Below, one piece after another: positions 17,630 to 59,070 of a stretch of DNA of 59,070 bases (within the stretch, counting starts at the first letter, position 1; every line of letters starts with the position of its first letter). Origin of the DNA: a virus. Taxonomy: Duplodnaviria > Caudoviricetes. Location: IMG/VR virus record IMGVR_UViG_3300048086_000027, positions 1 to 59,070 of that record; one strand, written 5' to 3'. Under the pieces are notes generated by a model. The model did not search any database and was not told the DNA's origin. It saw only the letters and a program-made list of their open reading frames with translations. The translations under genes were made by a program, and so were the position numbers.

Positions 17630-18751
17630 CTACAGATTATCAAGCACTGACTTTGCACCCTTGCGTGCCTCTGACTGGCGAAGAGATTTCAAGTACACCT
17701 CGGTCACCTTGATAGAGCTATGCCTGAGCAAGCGAGATAGTTGATAGATGTCTCCACCATTGCGTATGAACATCACAGAGAAAGTGTGGCGGAACGTATG
17801 CGGTGAGCAACGGACACCCTGGATATCTGCCCATTCACCCAGACGCACAATGATCTGATAGAGTCCAGATTTCGTCAGAGGCTGGCCAGCCCGATTCACA
17901 AAAAAACGCTCCTGGGCTATCAGTTGTTTCTTGCGCTGATGCATTTCTCGATCAGGAAGGCCACGAAGCTGAGAGACGATCTTATGCTCGATTGTCGGCT
18001 CTCGGAACAGACGAAGGTACCGCTGGAGGAAACGCCTGGTCTGCTCTCCAAAACCCACCTCACCCCACTTCTTCCCTTTCCCAAAAATGCGTACATGAGG
18101 ATCTTTGGGATCCAGGGAGACATGCTCTATAGTCAGTCGAAGCAGCTCCGACTCACGAATACCGGTATCCAAAAACAGAGCAACAATCGCTCGATCACGC
18201 AAGCGCAGATGCTCACTCTCCTCCTTATCACATGCCTGAAACAACGCCTCTATCTGCGAGCTGGTGAAGGTTTCAAGAATGGTCTCCTCTATCGTGGGCT
18301 TCTGGATGCGTTGCGCAGTCACCGCCAGCACATGATGGCAATATTGCTCATCTAGTACACACCAGTTGAGGAAACGCTTAATGTCCTTCACATAGAGGGC
18401 AAGCGTACTTGCTGAGAGTTGATTGGCTCCAGCTTTTGCAGGCTTGTGCGTGGCCGCCAGGTGTTCAAGGAAGCAATGCACCACCTGGGCATCCACCCGA
18501 TGGAGCATAATCGGATCATGCTTTTCACGAATACTGACCGCCTTCCAGGTGTTTGCCTTGCGATCATGGGAGATGGCATGGGACGCACACCACTGCCCAA
18601 AGGCGGTCAGCGTATAACGATACTCATCCTGCGTCTTCGATTCAAGGCGCTTGACTGCTGACGATGCAAGAAAATCCTGTACAGCAGTGGGAACAGGAAC
18701 GACTGCATCAGCTTCCCGACGCTGCTTCACGCGATGATACCGATTAGGCAT
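17630..18751 (-). CDS. int: Tyrosine integrase
   Basis: Catalytic R (TGIRESE), K (GKGKK), HxxR (PHTFRH), H (LLRHSS), Y (TEVY). Confidence 0.93.
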   Translation of the reverse strand: MPNRYHRVKQRREADAVVPVPTAVQDFLASSAVKRLESKTQDEYRYTLTAFGQWCASHAISHDRKANTWKAVSIREKHDPIMLHRVDAQVVHCFLEHLAATHKPAKAGANQLSASTLALYVKDIKRFLNWCVLDEQYCHHVLAVTAQRIQKPTIEETILETFTSSQIEALFQACDKEESEHLRLRDRAIVALFLDTGIRESELLRLTIEHVSLDPKDPHVRIFGKGKKWGEVGFGEQTRRFLQRYLRLFREPTIEHKIVSQLRGLPDREMHQRKKQLIAQERFFVNRAGQPLTKSGLYQIIVRLGEWADIQGVRCSPHTFRHTFSVMFIRNGGDIYQLSRLLRHSSIKVTEVYLKSLRQSEARKGAKSVLDNL

Positions 18752-44614: not shown

Positions 44615-45457
44615 TTAATCTACCCCGCGACGGTCCCATTCCGACAGGTTCTCGAATTGTTTATTCATCTTTCTCTCATTGCAGAGCTTATGGCTAGGAT
44701 GAATATTATCAGCCGTATGGGTGCCCTTTGGCTCACCCTTGCGGGGATGAAGAGGCGTCATGTGATCGAAGGCAAGGCTCGCAGGACCAGATGTAATAGT
44801 CAAATCAATGGTACATGCGCAAATGTAGCACCACGCACCATCCCGTTCAAGGATACGCTTATAGCTTATCCGCTCACCAGATCTTGCTGCTTTTTGCCCT
44901 ATCTTGTGGCGTCGATTAGTTTCGCGAATAGCAAGAGGATTGTTCTTTCTCCATTCTGCATTAGCGCGGCTTACAGCTTCACGAAAACTTGCATCAGTCG
45001 CTTTCTTGAATGCCAATTGCTCTCGACGTTTTGCATTATGTTCATCAGTGTTGTGGCGTTTGCGATCATAGGCGCGTCTTTGTTCAATCCGTGGGATTCT
45101 GCTTTCCTTATCCTGCTTACGAGCGCGCTCTTTTTCCTCTTCTGGCAAGGCTTGATACTTCTGACTCCTGCATTGTTTGCAGCGTCCAGTGTAGCCATCT
45201 TTCTGTACAGAGTCAGGGGAGAATTCAGCGTGGGGCTTTTCAAGAAGACAGGTATTACAGATCTTATAACCGGTTCGAGAAGTTTGCTTTATTCTTCGTG
45301 GGCGACCAGGGCGGGCGCAACAGTCCTTGCAATCAGCACGCCTTCCATACTTGCCATGCTCCGACTTGAAGAATTCATCGAGGGGCTTGTCTTGATGGCA
45401 CTTGGTGCAGACTTTCGAGATGACAAACAGGGGCTGTTGTTGGTACAATGCAGACAT
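44615..45457 (-). CDS. Free-standing HNH endonuclease with N-terminal zinc fingers
   Basis: Two KxCxxC...CKxC units; CYIC...DHMTP...H..DNI...H..CN..K. Confidence 0.85.
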   Translation of the reverse strand: MSALYQQQPLFVISKVCTKCHQDKPLDEFFKSEHGKYGRRADCKDCCARPGRPRRIKQTSRTGYKICNTCLLEKPHAEFSPDSVQKDGYTGRCKQCRSQKYQALPEEEKERARKQDKESRIPRIEQRRAYDRKRHNTDEHNAKRREQLAFKKATDASFREAVSRANAEWRKNNPLAIRETNRRHKIGQKAARSGERISYKRILERDGAWCYICACTIDLTITSGPASLAFDHMTPLHPRKGEPKGTHTADNIHPSHKLCNERKMNKQFENLSEWDRRGVD

Positions 45458-50143: not shown

Positions 50144-51142
50144 ATGGTAGCGCAATTTGTCGATGTATCGGCGTTTCAGGCTGAAACGCTCGATTGGAGT
50201 GCATATCGAGTTTGGGCCTCACAGGGCGGCTCCCTTGCAAGGGTGGCTATCCGCTCTAGCTTTGGCGTTGGCTATCTGGATCAGCATTTCCAGGCATATA
50301 GGGCTGGCGCACTAGCTGCTGGAGTAGACTCTATTCTCTACTATCATTATGCCTATCCTCAGTTCAATAGCGCCAGCGCAGAGGCGGACTGGCAGCATCG
50401 CATTGTCGGTACCGTTCGGCCTCAAGACCAGCTTGTTCTGGATTTTGAAGAGAATGTCAATGAGGCAACAGCGGAATGGGCCTATCAGTTCCTGGCCAGG
50501 CAAGAGCAGAATTATGGGAAGCTTCCTGTAATCTATGCCAGTGACTACTACATTCGGCAAAGGCTGCAAGACGCACGGCTCGCCAAATATCCGCTCTGGC
50601 TCGCGAACTGGCAATACTCATCAGACGCTCGGCCAGCCTGCCCACCACCATGGAAGGTATATACCTACCTCCAGTACACCGACAAAGCTGTTTCTATCCC
50701 AGGGATCGCTGGGACGGTGGATGCAAATATCTATCTCGGAGGAAACACAATGCAGATACCACAAGGTTGGAAAGACGACGGCACGACGCTCACGGCGCCC
50801 AACACTATCCCAGTAATCAAAGGATTTCGGGATTTTATCCTTGCCCACCCATGGGACCCCAACAACTACCCCCTTGCAAGGGAGGAGGGGCGCAATCCAG
50901 TAGAAGTGTCCAATCCGTCCTTGGGACCTGGCACCCAGCAACTCTTTCGGCTCTTTCCTTTGGAGTGGACACAGGATAGAGGGGTGTTCCCAGCCTGGGG
51001 CGGGCAAGAGATACTGGCGCTGCGTGCCCTGGTTGCTTCCTTGCAAGGGGAGAATACCCGGCTTGCGCAGCAGCTCGCAACCCAAAACAGTGACCTTGTA
51101 GCGCGTCTTCAACAGATTCACAGTTTGTCTAGCATTTCTTAG
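50144..51142 (+). CDS. Endolysin, GH25 muramidase
   Basis: DVSAFQ, YHYA, LDFEE, LWLANW, QYTD, VDAN motifs. Confidence 0.9.
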   Translation: MVAQFVDVSAFQAETLDWSAYRVWASQGGSLARVAIRSSFGVGYLDQHFQAYRAGALAAGVDSILYYHYAYPQFNSASAEADWQHRIVGTVRPQDQLVLDFEENVNEATAEWAYQFLARQEQNYGKLPVIYASDYYIRQRLQDARLAKYPLWLANWQYSSDARPACPPPWKVYTYLQYTDKAVSIPGIAGTVDANIYLGGNTMQIPQGWKDDGTTLTAPNTIPVIKGFRDFILAHPWDPNNYPLAREEGRNPVEVSNPSLGPGTQQLFRLFPLEWTQDRGVFPAWGGQEILALRALVASLQGENTRLAQQLATQNSDLVARLQQIHSLSSIS

Positions 51143-51153
51143 GAGGAATAATT

Positions 51154-51453
51154 ATGCAACTTCCATCTGACATCGCATTCATTGTTGCGCTCCTGGTGAG
51201 CGTCATGTCAAACTTTTTGCGCTCTGACGGATTGCCCAAAGCGGCCAACGCAGTCATTGCTATTGTGGCTATTGTGTTGATTGCTGGCGCAATAGGCTGG
51301 CTTACCACGGGCTTCACGCTCGACATTAAACAGGATGTGCTCTTGATTATCAGCATCATAGTGAGCTTGTTTACCGGTCTGAAGGAATTGAATGATCTGC
51401 TGGCCTACCTGCAAGCGGCCAATTCCCCCTTGCAAGGATCCGAAACGCCCTAG
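51154..51453 (+). CDS. Holin (3 TM)
   Basis: Three hydrophobic helices directly after the endolysin. Confidence 0.75.
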   Translation: MQLPSDIAFIVALLVSVMSNFLRSDGLPKAANAVIAIVAIVLIAGAIGWLTTGFTLDIKQDVLLIISIIVSLFTGLKELNDLLAYLQAANSPLQGSETP

Positions 51454-51556
51454 AATGGCCGTAGCATCGTCAGGGTGCCTGGATATCCATTCATATGGCT
51501 GAGAAGACACAGAGGCCCTGACGATTATCCTGACCCCCGTGGCCACGGGGGAAGGC

Positions 51557-51588
51557 GGAGCCCAGAGCGTTGTTTTGCTCTGGGCTCC
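51557..51588. terminator. Strong hairpin between the lysis operon and the end of the array
   Basis: GGAGCCCAGAGC-loop-GCTCTGGGCTCC (12-bp stem). Confidence 0.7.
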
Positions 51589-51604
51589 TTGCATACCTGG
51601 ATAT

Positions 51605-52696
51605 TGGGTTTCACATACAGAATGGTTCACACTTTTATCTTGGGCTTCACACTGGATTTGGTTCACACATCCATATTGGGCATCACTATAAACTTGGTTC
51701 ACACACATTGACATTGGCACTCACCGCTCTTATGGTTCGCACTCAATATATGGCACTCACCGCTCTTTTGGCTCACACTTCAGTTTTGGTACTCACCAAT
51801 TAATGGCTCACACAAAAGCGCTGGGCTTCACTCTTTTTTTGGTTCACACGTACTCTTTGGGCTTCACTACAATGCTGGCTCACACTCACCTTATGGGCGT
51901 CACGGATATACTGGTTCACACATCATTGATAGAACGCACAAGTCAGATGGTTCGCACTAATACCATGGGTTCCACTTATTGACTGGCTCACACTCATTGT
52001 CTGGGTTTCACATCGTTTTTGGCTCACACACTGCATTTGGTATGCACAGAATATTTGGTTCACACAGCTACATTGGTTCACACACTTCCTCTGGTACTCA
52101 CCATCTATTTGGTTCACACTCTGCCATTGGTACTCACCGGCGACAGGGTTCACTCTGGATCAATGGTATCCACGATCTCAGTGGTTCGCACGTACAACAT
52201 GGTACTCACCACTCGTATGGCTCGCACACATTCTCTGGTACACATTTGGTATCTGGCTCACACTCCTTCCCTTGGGTTTCACCTGGGCTATGGTTCACAC
52301 TTGTCAGATGGTACGCACGCCTTGTATGGTTCGCACGTGATACATGGAATTCACTGTTATTCTGGCTCATATGAGCACTCTGGGATACACGCCTTGACTG
52401 ATTCACACCATTACTATGGGCTTCACACTTGCAATGGTTCACTCATACTCTCTGGAACACACATTGGTTCTGGCTCGCACTTCATTGATGGAACTCACTA
52501 CCTCATTGGCTCACATACAGTTTATGGGGCTCACCGTTGTCATGGTTCACACGTCTATCTTGGTATTCACGCGACCACTGGTTCACACCTGAACTATGGG
52601 TTTCACTATGGACTTGGTTCACACGCTCTCAATGGGTTTCACAAACCCTTTGGCTCACACGGCTATCTTGGCACTCACTCCAAACATGGTTCACAC
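51605..52696 (-). ncRNA. TIGR-like dual-repeat guide RNA array (61 half-repeats, about 30 units of 36 nt)
   Basis: On the minus strand, GTGYGARCCA alternates with GTGANNNCCA, separated by mostly unique spacers of about 8 nt; starts 10 nt after the Tas-like stop codon. Confidence 0.85.
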
Positions 52697-52705
52697 TTTG
52701 ATTGG

Positions 52706-53560
52706 TTAAGCTCCAGACATTGGCCAATTAGGAATTTCGATCATATGAACATGCTCTAAGTGTGCTAGAGCATATGGTCGTGGAGCTGGATGCCCATAAT
52801 ACACCTCGTACATCACAGCGTGCACGTGCGAAAGAAAAATCTTCACAGCGTATCTCTCCGCCCTGGCTTGAATGTGCGCAGGTGGGAGCTGGCCCATCGA
52901 ATAATACCTGTAGGCGTCGGTCTCCTTGCCGATATTCTTCTCCTGGAGGATACGTGCAGCCTGCTCAGCATACTCTTTCCGCGCATTCTTCTCCATCTCA
53001 TAGAGTTTTCGGTCTCTGTACAAAGGGCCATAGAACGACCCATCACGGCCTGACGACTTGACGAAAGATTGTCCGATCTTCCAGCCCAGGACTTTCAAGC
53101 GAGCATTCCAGGGCCGCTTCGTCTTCTTTTCCCATTTCACAGTTGGATCATAACCCGCAAAACGCCACAAAGCGCCTGCTGTAGCGGTTTTGGTGATATC
53201 GATATGAGCTAAGAGCCCAGCAGCAATGACCGGCCCGATGCCCTTGACTGATAGCGCCCACTGCCCTGGGATCTGTGACTTTGCATATTGCTCCAACGCG
53301 CCCTTCACGTCTAGCTCTAGCTTCTCGTACATATCCTTGGTCCAGCCAATGAGGATGTTGGATTCATCCTGAGCAGAGCGGACCTGAGCAGCAGCTCCTA
53401 TGCGTAATTTTTGAAGGGTGTAGTAGAGGTCGACAAGATAGCGGCTCTGATCGGCGCTGAGCAAGGTGGCCGATTTCTTCAGGTCTCTGGTGAGCCGTGT
53501 GGCCGCAATTAACTCTTCAAGCGTGGGTTCTGATTCGGTCAGGTATTGTTCTGCTATCAT
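52706..53560 (-). CDS. tasA: TasA-like Nop-domain / IS110-related RNA-binding protein without a nuclease domain
   Basis: LVDLYYTLQKLRI coiled coil; VKGIGPVIAAGLLAHI...ALWRFAG HhH/Nop region; no RuvC or HNH motif seen; adjacent array. Confidence 0.8.
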   Translation of the reverse strand: MIAEQYLTESEPTLEELIAATRLTRDLKKSATLLSADQSRYLVDLYYTLQKLRIGAAAQVRSAQDESNILIGWTKDMYEKLELDVKGALEQYAKSQIPGQWALSVKGIGPVIAAGLLAHIDITKTATAGALWRFAGYDPTVKWEKKTKRPWNARLKVLGWKIGQSFVKSSGRDGSFYGPLYRDRKLYEMEKNARKEYAEQAARILQEKNIGKETDAYRYYSMGQLPPAHIQARAERYAVKIFLSHVHAVMYEVYYGHPAPRPYALAHLEHVHMIEIPNWPMSGA

Positions 53561-56468
53561 CTGGGTTGTTCCTTTCTGGCCGTGTCGAGCACGGCGGTAA
53601 TCTTCGCGGTAGCATAGGCGTCAATGGCCTGTAATCGTGGCAATTGTGGCAAGGTCACCAAAAATAAGTGACCAAACATCACTCGTTTCATGAGGCTCAC
53701 ATTCTGGCGTGCCTGTTGTAGACGTACGCAGAGCGGGCAGAGTGTGCCAGGCTCAGCACACCAGCGGCATTGATAGGCGCCACAAGAACAGGAGAGCCAG
53801 GTCAAATCTTCGCAGTACAGGCATGGGAGCATCACGCGGCTTGCTCCTCTGTCTGTTCTAGTGGACGCTCCTGGACACGGGCCAGGATCTTGCCAGGACA
53901 GGCTTGATCTTCAAAGATGTCCACAATCTCCCAACGCCGGTAGGCTTGTACGTAGCGATGGCGCAGAGCCATCTGGAAGGCGTCAAGGATCAGGGACTCA
54001 CTCATATCGGTGAGGTGCAACAAGGTTGGATCAATAACTGCAATCTCGACAACTTTCTCATTCATCGCTTTTTGCTCCCTCTCGATTTTCCTGCTCTGCT
54101 TTTTCATGGATGCATCGGATGAACTCTCGTACCTCGACCAACCCGGCAATATTTGCAGCAAGACCAGGGCTTGCACAACGATTTTGTTCATGCTGCATAA
54201 AGCCAATGGCGTTGGAAAGTTCAGAGATTGCTTTTAGCGTGTCTAACTCATTGGTCATCGCTGTTTCGCCCTCCATTCTTCTTCTAGTTGGGCAATTGCG
54301 CTTTCTGCAATGCCCTGATAGTGATCCGTAATTGGTGCTGGCTCAGCATTGGACTGCGCTTTTCCCTTGCGGCCTTGCACCCATTCAATGAGCAGCGTCA
54401 GCAGATACAGTGCAATATGGAAAAGTGCAAGGACACAGAGTCCGAACCCAATCAGGGCAGCACATATCATGCCCAGGAGTGGCCAATCAACGTAACGCAT
54501 GTGGCTCACCTCGCACAATCACGTCATAGGTAAAACTGCGCTCGCACGTGTATGGGATTGGCAATGAATTCAGCCGTTTCGGATAGAAGGACTTAAATGG
54601 ACGTCCAAACGTGATAAAGCGCCCAACAGAGAGCACAATGACCGATGGATAGAAGCCCTGGACAAGATAGAAGCGCTCGACAACAGCCTCTATGAGATCA
54701 AAGGTATGTTCGTAGGGATTCACCACACGAAGGTAGTGCCTACCCAGCTTGTCCATTGGCAAGCCTGGAGGCCTCACCAGAGCATGAGGAACCAGGATCT
54801 GGGTTTCTGTATCGATAATGTGTTGTGGTCTGGCTTCGCGTTCTACGGCACGCAAGCGGATCGGTGAAAGCGTCATTGCGGTGGCTCCTCTCCGAGCAGG
54901 ATAAGCTCTCTGGCGTCTAGTACTCCCTTCTCTTCACGCCATTCGCTGTCAGCGAGATCATCTACGCTATCTGTCAAATTATGATAGGCTTCAACGAGAT
55001 CCTGATATTTCCTCACTACCCCTTGCAAGGGAGTGATGTAGAGTTCTTGAATGCGGGCAGCCATCGCCTTAATAGTTGCCTTGTCCTGCTCATTGAACTC
55101 ATCCCAGCTTTGTGGTTCAGCATCGGGCACAATGGCTCGCACGATGTTATGTATAGCTTCTCCTGTAATCTTCACATTTCACCTCTTGCTTTCTGTGCAA
55201 GATACAACCTCGCACACTGATAAATTTTGTCCTGAGCTACGCTGTGTAGCATCAGCCCGGCATCACTCTCACCAGGGCGGCCATAGGGATAACACAAACG
55301 GTATCCTGGCTCATGTGAGAGCGAGACGGCAACAGGGTCACTCTCTGGCGTCTGAGCTACTGAGAACACCCAGTAGCCACCCCTTGCACGGAAATACCAG
55401 GGCAGGCCGTCAACGCGCCCCAGGGCCTGCACCGGGCAATACCCGGTGAGCCAACTAATTTGGATAGCGGAAGCAAGGCGAGTAGGCATCTAGGCGCCCT
55501 CCAGCTCGTTCTCATCGAGCGGAACAATGCGTAGAATGTGGGGAGGTAATTGCTCTTCCTCCATGATGTGGAGCAAAGAATTTGCAAGCACTGATGCGCG
55601 AGCTGCGGCCAAATGCGCACAGCCCAGACAGTTGGACTCATGGACTTCTTGCAAATCCTTTTGAATGGTTTTGAGAACGCCACGTAAGACGTGTTGGTTC
55701 ATGCGGCACCTCCCATGCTGGTGCTGGCGGCGTCTTCAATGACATAGTGCTGATAGAGGCGCCTGATTTCACCCGCAACTTCCGCCGCTCTGCTATCTTG
55801 CTTCAGTTCTTCCCATGGCTTATTCCAGTTCCAGAGGTAAGCAATCGCCTCTAGGAATTGTTGTGCAATCACTTCAGTCTCCCAGGCTTCCTCTGTTTCC
55901 CCAACAGCAAGGCCAGTCGCGAGATGTGTGACGGTGAAAAGCGGCTTCCCATCTTCTGTATCCTCGTCAATCCAATAGCCCAGACCAACGTTGATGGCAA
56001 CCTTGCCGGGATGTGGCAAGACCACCTTTTCACCAGTTTGTTTATGAACACAGGTTGTTTGAATGATGGCATCTTCGTACTTCATGCGGGTTGCTTCCTT
56101 TCATCTGTCTGTGGCTCACGCTGCTTCTGCCACAGATCATGCAAAATTGGTGTATCATTAGGGCCTTTATGGCACTGACAACGGCATGCAGCGTCAAGGC
56201 ATGCGACCAATGTAAGATCAGCTTGATGTCGTTGGGCGGTGCAGTGAAGGGCGTCAGGATGGACACAGCGACACATTTAATCAGACTCCACTTCTTTGAC
56301 TGCTAATAATGCTTCGTACAATTTTTCAGCATCTTCAGCCGTATCGGTAACAAATGTGATAAAGAGCCCAAGTGCCTCCCAGAGCACTTGATTGGGCCGG
56401 TTATCTTCAGGATCGATGCGCAGTTGTACGCATTCGCCCATCTTGTCTGTACCGTCTTTTGAGATCAT
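53557..56468 (-). other. Tightly packed small hypothetical genes (53557-53835, 53832-54062, 54058-54258, 54255-54500, 54487-54876, 54873-55175, 55172-55489, 55490-55702, 55699-56085, 56082-56276, 56277-56468)
   Basis: Co-oriented with overlapping start/stop codons. Confidence 0.65.
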
Positions 56469-58348: not shown

Positions 58349-59070
58349 AACTGTATCCTGACCAGCAAGAAGCCTTGAATGCTGTTCTGGCTCACTATAA
58401 CGCGCAGCCTGTCGGTGGTCGTGCCCTGGTAGTTGCCCCGACCGGATGGGGAAAAACAGTTTTGTTCAGCTCCCTTGCAAGGGGGCTCGCGGGCAGAACA
58501 GTGCTCATGATTGCCCATCGGGATGAACTGCTCAACCAGGCGCGCGACAAATTCCAGATGATTGATCCTTCTGCTATTGTGGGCAAGGTTGGTGGCGGTA
58601 TCCATGAGTATGGCGCGCCGATCACTGTCGCCGGGATCGACACGATAAGTCAGGAACGGCATCTGAAGAATCTACACAAGTTTGGCTATCACGTGGTGAT
58701 CTGGGATGAATCCCATCATTGCAGAGCGCCAAAATATGAGAAGGTGCGCGCTGTGCTGCCCGATGCTTTTCACCTGGGCGTCACCGCCACACCAGACAGG
58801 CTGGACAAAAAGTCACTTGAACCGCTCTTTGGGAAGCCTGTTTTCCAGATGAGCATTATTGAAGCTATCCAGCAGCATCGACTCTGCGATGTGCGGGCGA
58901 TAGCGATACGCACAGAAACGAATCTGGATGATATCCGTTCATCAAAAAATAGCGACGGTGAAACAGACTTCAATCAGCAGGACCTGGCCCACGCCGTTGA
59001 TACCGACGCCCGTAATAAGCGGTTAGTCGAAGCCTATCAAGAGCATGCCGACGGGCGACGGGCTATCTGC
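58342..59070 (+). CDS. SF2 helicase, N-terminal part (not in the ORF track; continues to 1141)
   Basis: Manual translation: APTGWGKT (Walker A), WDESHH (Walker B), GVTATPDR (motif III). Confidence 0.92.
   Translation, partial: MLELYPDQQEALNAVLAHYNAQPVGGRALVVAPTGWGKTVLFSSLARGLAGRTVLMIAHRDELLNQARDKFQMIDPSAIVGKVGGGIHEYGAPITVAGIDTISQERHLKNLHKFGYHVVIWDESHHCRAPKYEKVRAVLPDAFHLGVTATPDRLDKKSLEPLFGKPVFQMSIIEAIQQHRLCDVRAIAIRTETNLDDIRSSKNSDGETDFNQQDLAHAVDTDARNKRLVEAYQEHADGRRAIC

Follow-up and report, generated by a model that had tools for sequence, protein, structure and literature searches.

The locus described here lies on the minus strand of a phage genome and consists of a gene for a nuclease-less Tas protein (tasA), an array of two alternating short repeats located immediately behind it, and two hairpins that separate the array from the convergent genes of the lysis module (Table 1). 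The window, that is, the whole stretch of 59,070 nucleotides that was analyzed (IMG/VR record IMGVR_UViG_3300048086_000027), is the complete genome of a tailed phage from soil, with direct terminal repeats and an integrase gene; the phage is probably temperate. A preliminary description, made from the letters of the DNA alone, had read the locus as a phage-encoded TIGR-Tas-like RNA-guided system, and we examined this reading through sequence and structure comparison, dissection of the array, and a search for targets of its guides.

Table 1. Coordinates of the features of the tasA locus in the window
Feature	Coordinates	Strand	Evidence
tasA: 284-aa nuclease-less Tas protein with coiled coil (~14-94), Nop-type RNA-binding domain and putative dyad Y263/H270	52706..53560	-	ORF, phmmer, AF2, Foldseek
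Gap between tasA stop codon and first edge repeat, 9 nt	52697..52705	-	Sequence
TIGR array block 1: 17 guide units (edge, spacer A, loop, spacer B), repeats 1-35	52074..52696	-	
Orphan single spacer between consecutive edge repeats, without loop repeat and second spacer (phase slip)	52066..52073	-	
TIGR array block 2: 13 guide units, repeats 36-61 and final spacer	51597..52065	-	
Degenerate truncated edge repeat closing unit 30; 5/10 bases as in edge consensus; last two bases inside hairpin stem	51587..51596	-	
Two GC-rich hairpins between array and convergent lysis-module genes	51534..51588	-	Fold -45.9 kcal/mol, z = -6.0

Genomic context

The tasA gene closes an operon of small, overlapping genes on the minus strand, which also includes a Cas4-like exonuclease. 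Its start is overlapped by an ORF for a Cys-rich protein of 92 aa (53557-53835) that matches nothing in Pfam or PHROG and has no counterpart in 16 viral loci of tasA relatives. The gap between the stop codon and the first repeat, previously given as 10 nt, is one nucleotide shorter and leaves no room for a separate promoter; a scan of the minus strand between tasA and the array detected no promoter-like site. At the other end, where a single strong hairpin had been described, the strong structure is there and consists of two hairpins, with a 12-bp stem at 51588-51557 and a 7-bp stem at 51551-51534; none of 200 shuffled sequences folds as stably. Neither hairpin is accompanied by a U-tract and a scan for consensus terminators made no call; the pair would probably act as the transcription stop.

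The locus is contained in a single listed sequencing run, a soil metagenome that is possibly its source; this run is of DNA, and no RNA run is listed. A set of 50,697 phage records yielded neither a near-DNA match nor a tblastn match at E 1e-5. The closest relatives of the large terminase reside in metagenome-assembled genomes of Ktedonobacterales (61% and 51% identity), which points weakly to the Chloroflexota as hosts, the phylum named in the preliminary description. Three Chloroflexota genomes that hold the terminase relatives returned no Tas protein with TasA as the query.

The Tas protein

The closest sequence relatives of TasA in the PDB are Tas nucleases. With the single sequence, phmmer retrieved TasR (9mty, 6.4e-12) and TasH (2.4e-7), and a profile of 22 sequences brought these matches to 3.1e-26 for TaTasR (9mty) and 4.7e-14 for SpTasH, with IS621 and ISCro4 far weaker. 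The AF2 model (pLDDT 87.7, pTM 0.83) is all helical, with 12 helices and no additional domain. In the structural comparison suggested at the outset, the best 10 Foldseek matches in the PDB are all TasH or TasR chains (E ~1e-7, TM 0.55-0.70), followed by IS110-family recombinases (E 6e-3 to 2.5e-2). Chains of Nop5, Nop56/58 and Prp31 are absent from the Foldseek matches listed, so that the term Nop fold rests, in this case, on the structures of Tas and IS110 proteins. The ORF is as originally delimited, and its assignment to a Tas protein with an IS110/Nop-type region is supported by these comparisons. A predicted TasA homodimer scored 0.13 against a mark of 0.42, which weighs neither way.

The weaker IS110 matches are the basis of a different reading, namely, that the gene encodes an IS110-family transposase that works with a bridge RNA. 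The PHROG match of TasA, phrog_4285 (2.7e-48), bears the label 'transposase', the single Pfam match, albeit sub-threshold, is PF02371 (Transposase_20), and IS621 and ISCro4 recur, weakly, in both profile and fold searches. However, the similarity to IS621 is confined to residues 134-239 of the latter, its RNA-binding part; TasA begins at the coiled coil, within a stop-to-stop frame of 304 aa that permits an extension of at most 20 codons, so that the N-terminal DEDD/RuvC domain cannot fit; and the gene is followed by a 30-unit array, not by a single bridge RNA. We regard a transposase as extremely improbable.

Pfam, the AF2 model and the length of the frame concur that TasA, as had been noted, contains no nuclease domain of the RuvC, HNH or any other type. 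A Tas protein of this kind could conceivably be the targeting half of a nuclease system, recruiting a separately encoded nuclease by which the targets are cut. Several observations would fit such recruitment: a relative with 73% identity (P0009, locus L020), which is itself accompanied by an array, is a fusion in which an HNH domain follows the same Nop domain at the C-terminus; the tail of another relative (L019, 78% identity) resembles the linker of that fusion; and the phage itself encodes a free-standing protein (44615-45457) with a borderline HNH match (21.2 bits against a cut-off of 21.4). However, tblastn with the C-terminal tail of P0009 detected no homolog in the window, the strongest match lying in the terminase gene at E 0.028; the free-standing HNH protein is unlike P0009 (best E 17), and its gene belongs to a different transcription unit at a distance of 7 kb; no neighbor gene is conserved with tas between this locus and the 16 viral loci; and published TasA proteins are described as binding without cutting. 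When the HNH tail was searched among proteins of 219-699 aa, P0009 itself was the sole match. Recruitment of a nuclease seems very unlikely, and binding without cutting, as inferred from the published work on TasA proteins, would be the expected activity of this protein.

The putative dyad of TasA shares alignment columns with Y289 and H296 of SpTasH, which are reported to be catalytic (PMC13421893). H270 is invariant in all 22 relatives; position 263 is not strictly a tyrosine (Y in 17, W in 3 and F in 2), and the matching residue of TasR in the phmmer alignment is a tryptophan.

The TIGR array

On the minus strand, from 52696 to 51605, 61 full 10-nt repeats follow one another at intervals of 18 nt, an edge type, GTGYGARCCA, alternating with a loop type, GTGANNNCCA. 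A 62nd, degenerate and 3' truncated repeat, GTATGCAAGG (51596-51587), extends the whole array to 52696-51587; termination in a truncated edge repeat is a known feature of such arrays (PMC12045711). The spacers are 8 nt long in 58 of 61 cases (the remaining three are 9, 7 and 10 nt), and all 61 are unique. Strict alternation, as first described, holds throughout with one exception: repeats 35 and 36 (52083 and 52065) are both of the edge type and flank a single spacer. This phase slip divides the array into 17 + 13 = 30 two-spacer units and one orphan half-unit, in agreement with the approximately 30 dual-spacer guides, two 10-nt repeats and mostly unique spacers of about 8 nt that had been proposed. 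Each unit comprises the 3' half of an edge repeat, 8-nt spacer A, the 10-nt loop repeat, 8-nt spacer B and the 5' half of the next edge repeat, which sums to 36 nt, the period given previously.

The arrangement is far from anything expected by chance: the pattern GTGNNNNCCA-N8-GTGNNNNCCA, with at most one mismatch, has 54 matches in the window, 53 of these inside the array, compared to 0.34 +/- 0.67 in dinucleotide shuffles. Both repeat types begin with (G)UG, corresponding to box D, and finish with CCA, corresponding to box C. In the 27 canonical units of the 30, repeat positions 1-3, 5-6 and 8-10, which include the TG (2-3) and CCA (8-10) of the boxes, carry 1.6-2.0 bits of information and spacer positions 0.03-0.49 bits. 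Some repeats, for example, 19, 31 and 43, are degenerate, and some of the units that contain them may be dead.

Several plus-strand frames are open across the array, among them those at 52019-52759 and 51979-52374, as one would expect if the region encoded a His/Gly/Thr-rich repeat protein; an 18-nt period amounts to whole codons, which accounts for the open frames. Against a coding repeat, the frame changes at the 9-, 7- and 10-nt spacers, so that the array is not covered by any one ORF; overlapping frames are open together, and none has a Pfam match; the periods of relatives' arrays include 35 and 37 nt, which are not multiples of 3, and conservation tracks the RNA motifs and the base pair described below rather than codons. 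A protein-coding origin of the repeats can be set aside with near certainty. CRISPR-Cas was rejected as well: the array consists of two alternating 10-nt repeats with 8-nt spacers, whereas CRISPR arrays combine one repeat of ~25-36 nt with spacers about as long, and the sole cas-type match is a weak Cas4-like one, in the recombination exonuclease 3 kb away. PADLOC found nothing for Tas and its six neighbors apart from a weak Cas4 assignment of that exonuclease, and Rfam is blank over 51000-54000.

The association of gene and array is not peculiar to this phage. A periodic array of 35-39 nt adjoins the gene in 75 of the 96 relatives' loci, and 15 of the 16 viral loci have the array beside the gene. 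Where relatives have AG in the edge repeat, they also have it in the loop repeat.

Covariation between the ends of each guide

In all 30 units, base 7 of the edge repeat on the upstream side is able to pair with base 4 of the one on the downstream side: there are 19 A-U, 6 G-C and 5 G-U pairs with no A-C combination, and all 6 C stand opposite G (hypergeometric P = 7.8e-4). Shifted registers, used as a control, produce 3-6 A-C mismatches, and the same two positions taken within one edge repeat produce 4. In the 78%-identical relative, 16 of 18 units are pairable (2 G-C, 11 A-U, 3 G-U and 2 U-U), and in farther relatives with GAGCGAGCCA edges, C and G occupy these two positions. Faure et al. 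describe such an additional covarying pair at the edges of tigRNAs (PMC12045711).

The partners of this pair reside in separate repeats of the DNA, base 7 in one edge and base 4 in the next, and mismatches occur within single repeats, so that each edge repeat is a chimera of two neighboring guides. Ordinary selection on the terminal pair of each guide, passing through G-U intermediates, explains these data. A more elaborate scenario can be conceived: guides would be gained or swapped as complete cassettes of the size of one tigRNA, with the joints lying mid-edge, close to or at the site of processing, either because mature guides are copied back into the DNA or because recombination takes place at these joints. 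This scenario, if true, would bear on the way in which TIGR arrays acquire spacers, but we consider it a long shot next to the plainer reading, which accounts for the same data.

The covariation also bears on whether the locus is functional at all. An inactive remnant, in which gene and array persist without a function, might well contain the half-unit orphaned by the phase slip, the three spacers of deviating length and the several degenerate repeats, and would have no targets to be found in the phage genome and the relatives' loci. What speaks against decay is that the ORF is intact, its AF2 model is confident, H270 and other residues invariant in the family are kept, all 30 units preserve the pairing, six of them as compensated G-C, and the box motifs retain their 1.6-2.0 bits. 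A remnant appears quite improbable, somewhat more so than nuclease recruitment.

Search for targets

Paired spacers were searched, as the preliminary description had advised, each target pattern joining spacer A to reverse-complemented spacer B, in either order, for the 30 units. In the window outside the array, there are no matches with at most one mismatch, 2 with two mismatches (1.9 in shuffles) and 26 with three (22.6 in shuffles). Self-regulation by the guides is rejected for now, given that nothing matches at one mismatch or fewer and the rest is at the level of shuffled patterns. Among the relatives' loci (155 loci, 815,836 bases), we found 1 match with one mismatch and 30 with two, compared to 0.6 and 13.8 for letter shuffles; the apparent excess comes from the near-identical loci L015, L016, L017 and L089 and from the one 15-nt pattern, and with re-paired real spacers as the reference, the 31 matches observed at up to two mismatches compare to 22.4 +/- 7.0. 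Spacers in common with relatives are at chance level as well, with 1 exact 8-mer among 1,740 where 1.6 are expected. Thus, the search brought up no natural target of the 30 guides in the phage genome or in the 155 loci of relatives. In view of the lack of matches in their own phage genome, the guides are probably directed at host DNA or at rival mobile elements.

Relationship to known TIGR-Tas systems and proposed mode of action

In overall architecture, the phage locus resembles FpTIGR of Flavonifractor plautii (Faure et al. 2025, PMC12045711), which is described as a mobile-element-borne system with a solo Nop-domain Tas protein, no nuclease, and an adjacent edge/loop array with a 36-nt period and boxes D and C; the difference is in the 18 variable nt per guide there against 16 in the phage array. 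The latter number is shared with SpTIGR-TasH of Salicola phage CGphi29 (NC_020844; PDB 9w03, 9w04, 21kl; PMC13421893), likewise phage-borne and with the array right after the gene. Faure et al. (PMC12045711) give 16 variable nt for SpTIGR, and when read directly from NC_020844, its array has the same 10-nt repeats and 8-nt spacers, so the suggestion that the 8-nt spacers mark a variant subtype falls away. The edge cores are similar, GCGAGCCA in SpTIGR and GYGARCCA here, SpTasH has the Y/H dyad with the same 7-residue spacing, and its chains are among the top fold matches. The two differ in that SpTasH is a DNA-cutting protein with an HNH nuclease at its N-terminus, whereas the phage TasA has no nuclease, and in box D, which is AG in SpTIGR and UG here; identity between the proteins is 18-20% by Foldseek and 21% in alignment A2. 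TaTIGR-TasR from a Thermoproteota archaeon (PDB 9mty; Faure et al. 2025), the closest PDB match in sequence, has repeats of the form UG...CCA and, according to that report, the extra covarying edge base pair, but differs by an N-terminal RuvC nuclease and 9-nt spacers. MbTasA (Xu et al., 10.64898/2026.09.09.750476), another TasA, is nuclease-less and is reported to bind target DNA and cause reversible repression, the function inferred for the phage protein, in a preprint centered on stem-loop systems without the Y/H loop.

More remotely, the Nop-type RNA-binding domain and the two-part logic of the guides are shared with the bridge-RNA recombinases of the IS110/IS621 group and with Nop5 of the box C/D snoRNP. 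The phage locus lacks the DEDD/RuvC and serine catalytic domains and the single bridge RNA of the former, and the fibrillarin and L7Ae partners and K-turn motifs of the latter.

The homology and fold of TasA, the dual-repeat array, the box motifs, the edge covariation, the Y/H dyad and the linkage of gene and array all agree with the TIGR-Tas reading of the preliminary description. We conclude, with a probability of about 0.88, that the locus is a dual-repeat TIGR-TasA system, the RNA-guided DNA-binding module of a complete, probably temperate tailed phage. It is an ordinary member of the TIGR-Tas family, which entered the literature in 2025, and leaves the known picture of the family unchanged.

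By analogy with relatives that have been solved or assayed, the array would be co-transcribed with tasA, and a TasA dimer would hold the RNA, with one protomer gripping box C/D of the edge repeat and the other that of the loop repeat, whereupon the Y263/H270 dyad would cleave the precursor midway through each edge repeat to release 36-nt tigRNAs. Binding of 36-nt tigRNAs is reported for FpTasA (PMC12045711). Spacers A and B would pair with adjoining stretches on opposite strands of the DNA, defining a 16-bp target site with no PAM. Devoid of a nuclease, the complex would stay bound and might block transcription or replication; repression of transcription without cutting is described for TasA in the preprint 10.64898/2026.09.09.750476.

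Published TIGR-Tas surveys record 20,096 tas loci and 6,685 arrays. This phage contributes a natural TIGR-TasA locus with clear boundaries, set in a complete genome, a useful context because most of the published TIGR loci are on fragments, where a search for natural targets is not possible. With its thirty non-self guides and the clean covariation inside them, the locus is a reasonable model for studying the natural targets of TasA and the renewal of spacers. [quoted passage not shown]

The repeat array

At the level of sequence, the phage locus shows the repeat and spacer features by which Faure et al. (PMC12045711) define TIGR arrays. In that account, the arrays consist of two alternating repeats of 8-12 nt and 9-nt spacers (other sizes in some loci), both kinds of repeat start with UG (box D) and end with CCA (box C), and a 3' truncated edge repeat plus a terminator typically close the array. 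In the phage, 10-nt repeats recur on the minus strand at 18-nt spacing, in 61 full copies followed by a half-degenerate 62nd; the edge repeat has the consensus GTGYGARCCA, and the loop repeat reads GTGANNNCCA and varies in its middle. The spacers, all 61 distinct, are 8 nt long in 58 cases, with single spacers of 9, 7 and 10 nt, and carry 0.03-0.49 bits of positional information, compared with 1.6-2.0 bits where the repeats read GTG, GA and CCA. A scan for the two-repeat pattern, with at most one mismatch, yielded 54 matches in the window, 53 of them inside the array against 0.34 expected, and detected no second array elsewhere in the phage genome. The alternation is broken only once, where repeats 35 and 36 are both of the edge type with one spacer between them, so that the array comprises 17 + 13 = 30 two-spacer units and one orphan half-unit. 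Such a succession is what remains after an 18-nt deletion has removed a loop and a spacer, or after two arrays have been joined. The truncated, degenerate last edge repeat is followed by a pair of hairpins, one with a 12-bp stem and the other with a 7-bp stem (-45.9 kcal/mol, z = -6.0); neither has a U-tract, and a consensus scan did not call them terminators.

The spacer length had been taken in the preliminary description as a possible sign of a new subtype, a notion that does not survive comparison with SpTIGR, the array of Salicola phage CGphi29: like the present one, it combines 10-nt repeats with 8-nt spacers, and its guides are described as having 16 variable nucleotides (Faure et al., PMC12045711). 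On the RNA strand, the spacers of our phage are rich in A and T and poor in C (GC 37.6%, C 13.5%, against a genome GC of 51.2%). In 52 relatives, the mean spacer GC is 47.7% and that of their loci 54.8%; bias in the targets and avoided pairing with the repeats are both possible causes. In four pairs of spacers the difference is a single base; 1.1 such pairs are expected, and 27 of 1000 shuffles reach four.

Within each unit, base 7 of the upstream edge can pair with base 4 of the downstream edge in 30/30 cases (19 A-U, 6 G-C and 5 G-U), all six C residues standing opposite G (hypergeometric P = 7.8e-4). Mismatches appear four times when base 4 and base 7 are taken from one repeat, and three to six times in shifted registers. 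A 78%-identical relative (L019) has 16/18 pairable units, with both C residues opposite G, and in more distant relatives, with GAGCGAGCCA edges, the matching pair is C and G. Faure et al. (PMC12045711) describe an additional pair between the edge halves of one guide, backed by covariation in every case. The covariation seen here is evidence, internal to the sequence, of selection on the units as RNAs with meeting ends; it also fixes which repeat type is the edge. That tasA, the gene for the Tas protein TasA, and the array are a dead remnant is unlikely, given the intact reading frame and the pairing maintained across units. A coding repeat is ruled out by frame shifts and by the array periods of relatives, 35 and 37 nt among them.

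Coordinates of features in the window and in loci of Tas relatives (L numbers)
Feature	Position	Strand	Remark
Direct terminal repeat, exact, 127 nt	1-127 and 58944-59070
Tyrosine integrase	17630-18751	(-)	Pfam 2.3e-26
Free-standing 280-aa ORF	44615-45457	(-)	borderline match to HNH (21.2 bits against a cut-off of 21.4)
Endolysin	50144-51142	(+)	lysis gene
Small membrane-like ORF	to 51453	(+)	closes lysis genes before array
Half-degenerate 62nd repeat	51596-51587	(-)
Spacers	51597-52696	(-)	RNA strand
Consecutive edge repeats	52066-52083	(-)	phase slip
First 10-nt repeat	at 52696	(-)	9 nt past tasA stop codon
tasA, 284 aa	52706-53560	(-)	final gene of small-gene run
Cysteine-rich ORF, 92 aa	53557-53835	(-)	4-nt overlap with tasA start
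TasA relative, 78% identical	L019:4669-5568
P0009, 73% identical	L020:547-1731		HNH at residues 336-381
P0009 array	about L020:1725-2400		after HNH-bearing gene
Longer arrays, about 2.6-3.2 kb	L012:1400-4000, L068:990-4185, L055:3204-6372

The TasA protein

Annotation by family is transposase-like: the sole Pfam match is a sub-threshold Transposase_20, and PHROGs return phrog_4285 'transposase' (2.7e-48). An IS110 transposase is ruled out, the catalytic domain being missing. The best sequence matches among solved structures are the RuvC-bearing TIGR-TasR chain 9mty (6.4e-12) and TasH chains (2.4e-7), which a 22-sequence profile lifts to 3.1e-26 and 4.7e-14, respectively, with IS621 and ISCro4 far weaker. 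An AlphaFold2 model built from the 22-sequence alignment is confident (pLDDT 87.7, pTM 0.83) and all helical, and every one of its ten best Foldseek matches in the PDB is a chain of TasH or TasR (E about 1e-7), followed by IS110-family recombinases (E 6e-3 to 2.5e-2). Of the folds proposed for comparison, Tas and IS110 are recovered; the PDB matches listed include no chain of Nop5, Nop56/58 or Prp31. The suggested absence of a RuvC or HNH domain is borne out: the stop-to-stop frame of tasA spans only 304 aa and the alignment begins at TasR residue 117, leaving no space for such a domain at the N-terminus.

In SpTasH, the Tas protein of CGphi29, catalysis of pre-tigRNA processing is attributed to Y289 and H296 (NAR 2026, PMC13421893). 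When TasH and its array were located in the CGphi29 sequence and TasH was aligned with TasA, Y263 and H270 of TasA fell in the same columns; H270 is kept in 22/22 relatives, of which 17 have Y at position 263, 3 have W and 2 have F.

Possible mechanism and targets

Whereas the anatomy of the locus is observed directly, the mechanism is modelled on Tas relatives. No promoter was found in the 9-nt gap between tasA and the array, so the two would be co-transcribed. A TasA dimer would grip box C/D of the edge and loop repeats, and the Y/H dyad would cut mid-edge, releasing 30 guides of 36 nt, each defining a 16-bp site with 8 nt per strand. Having no nuclease, the complex would remain on DNA and could block transcription or replication, behaviour that reporter, RT-qPCR and EMSA assays have shown in the case of a different TasA (preprint 10.64898/2026.09.09.750476). 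The paired-spacer search that had been proposed gave no guide match in the phage's own genome or in the fetched relatives, which disfavours self-regulation and makes host DNA or rival mobile elements the likely targets.

The module and its relatives

The Tas family numbers 3,471 proteins at E <=0.001 among 5,197 candidates, and a 35-39-nt periodic array adjoins the gene in 75 of 96 fetched viral and metagenomic loci, many of the other 21 being short contigs. Except for tas and the array shadow ORFs, no ORF of the window has a counterpart in the 16 viral loci, so gene and array move as a two-part module. Spacer turnover is complete, in that the 78% and 73% relatives share no spacer with the phage; over all relatives, one shared 8-mer was observed against 1.6 expected. 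Some relatives have much longer arrays, upstream of tas or flanking it on both sides, which places 30 units mid-range for the family.

The array beside the 78% relative has the same GTG...CCA repeats. P0009, which has a dual-repeat array of its own, carries a C-terminal HNH domain (Pfam HNH_5, 9.2e-8); the nuclease domains of Tas proteins are N-terminal in the published descriptions cited here, and such a tail occurs in P0009 alone among the searched proteins of 219-699 aa. The 78% relative ends in a tail of ~20 aa resembling the linker before this HNH, which suggests recent loss or gain of the nuclease within this small clade. The P0009 fusion also suggests that a trans-acting nuclease might cooperate with TasA; however, no homologue of its HNH tail was found in the window, and the phage's free-standing borderline HNH gene shows no similarity to it.

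Systems of this kind are already known, having been published in 2025 and then in several 2026 papers and preprints, and 4,126 dual-repeat arrays have been surveyed (preprint 10.64898/2026.09.09.750476). What the present locus adds is modest: a complete, probably temperate phage as its context, a phase slip, clean covariation and close relatives that differ by a C-terminal HNH.

Genomic context and host

The window is an entire virus record of 59,070 bases from a tailed phage. Its direct terminal repeats and tyrosine integrase together indicate that the genome is complete and the phage probably temperate; it encodes large terminase, portal, head morphogenesis protein, tape measure, endolysin, primases, a Cas4-like recombination exonuclease and one tRNA-Pro. 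On one side the array borders on the last of the lysis genes, which are on the plus strand, and on the other on small, overlapping genes that run along the minus strand, tasA being the final one. The ORF overlapping the tasA start contains eight cysteines in CxxC-like pairs; it has no match in Pfam, PHROG or PADLOC and no counterpart beside tas in the 16 viral loci. The Chloroflexota host proposed earlier is weakly backed by the best relatives of the large terminase, which, at 61% and 51% identity, are in Ktedonobacterales MAGs; many from Actinomycetota come next, at 46-51%.
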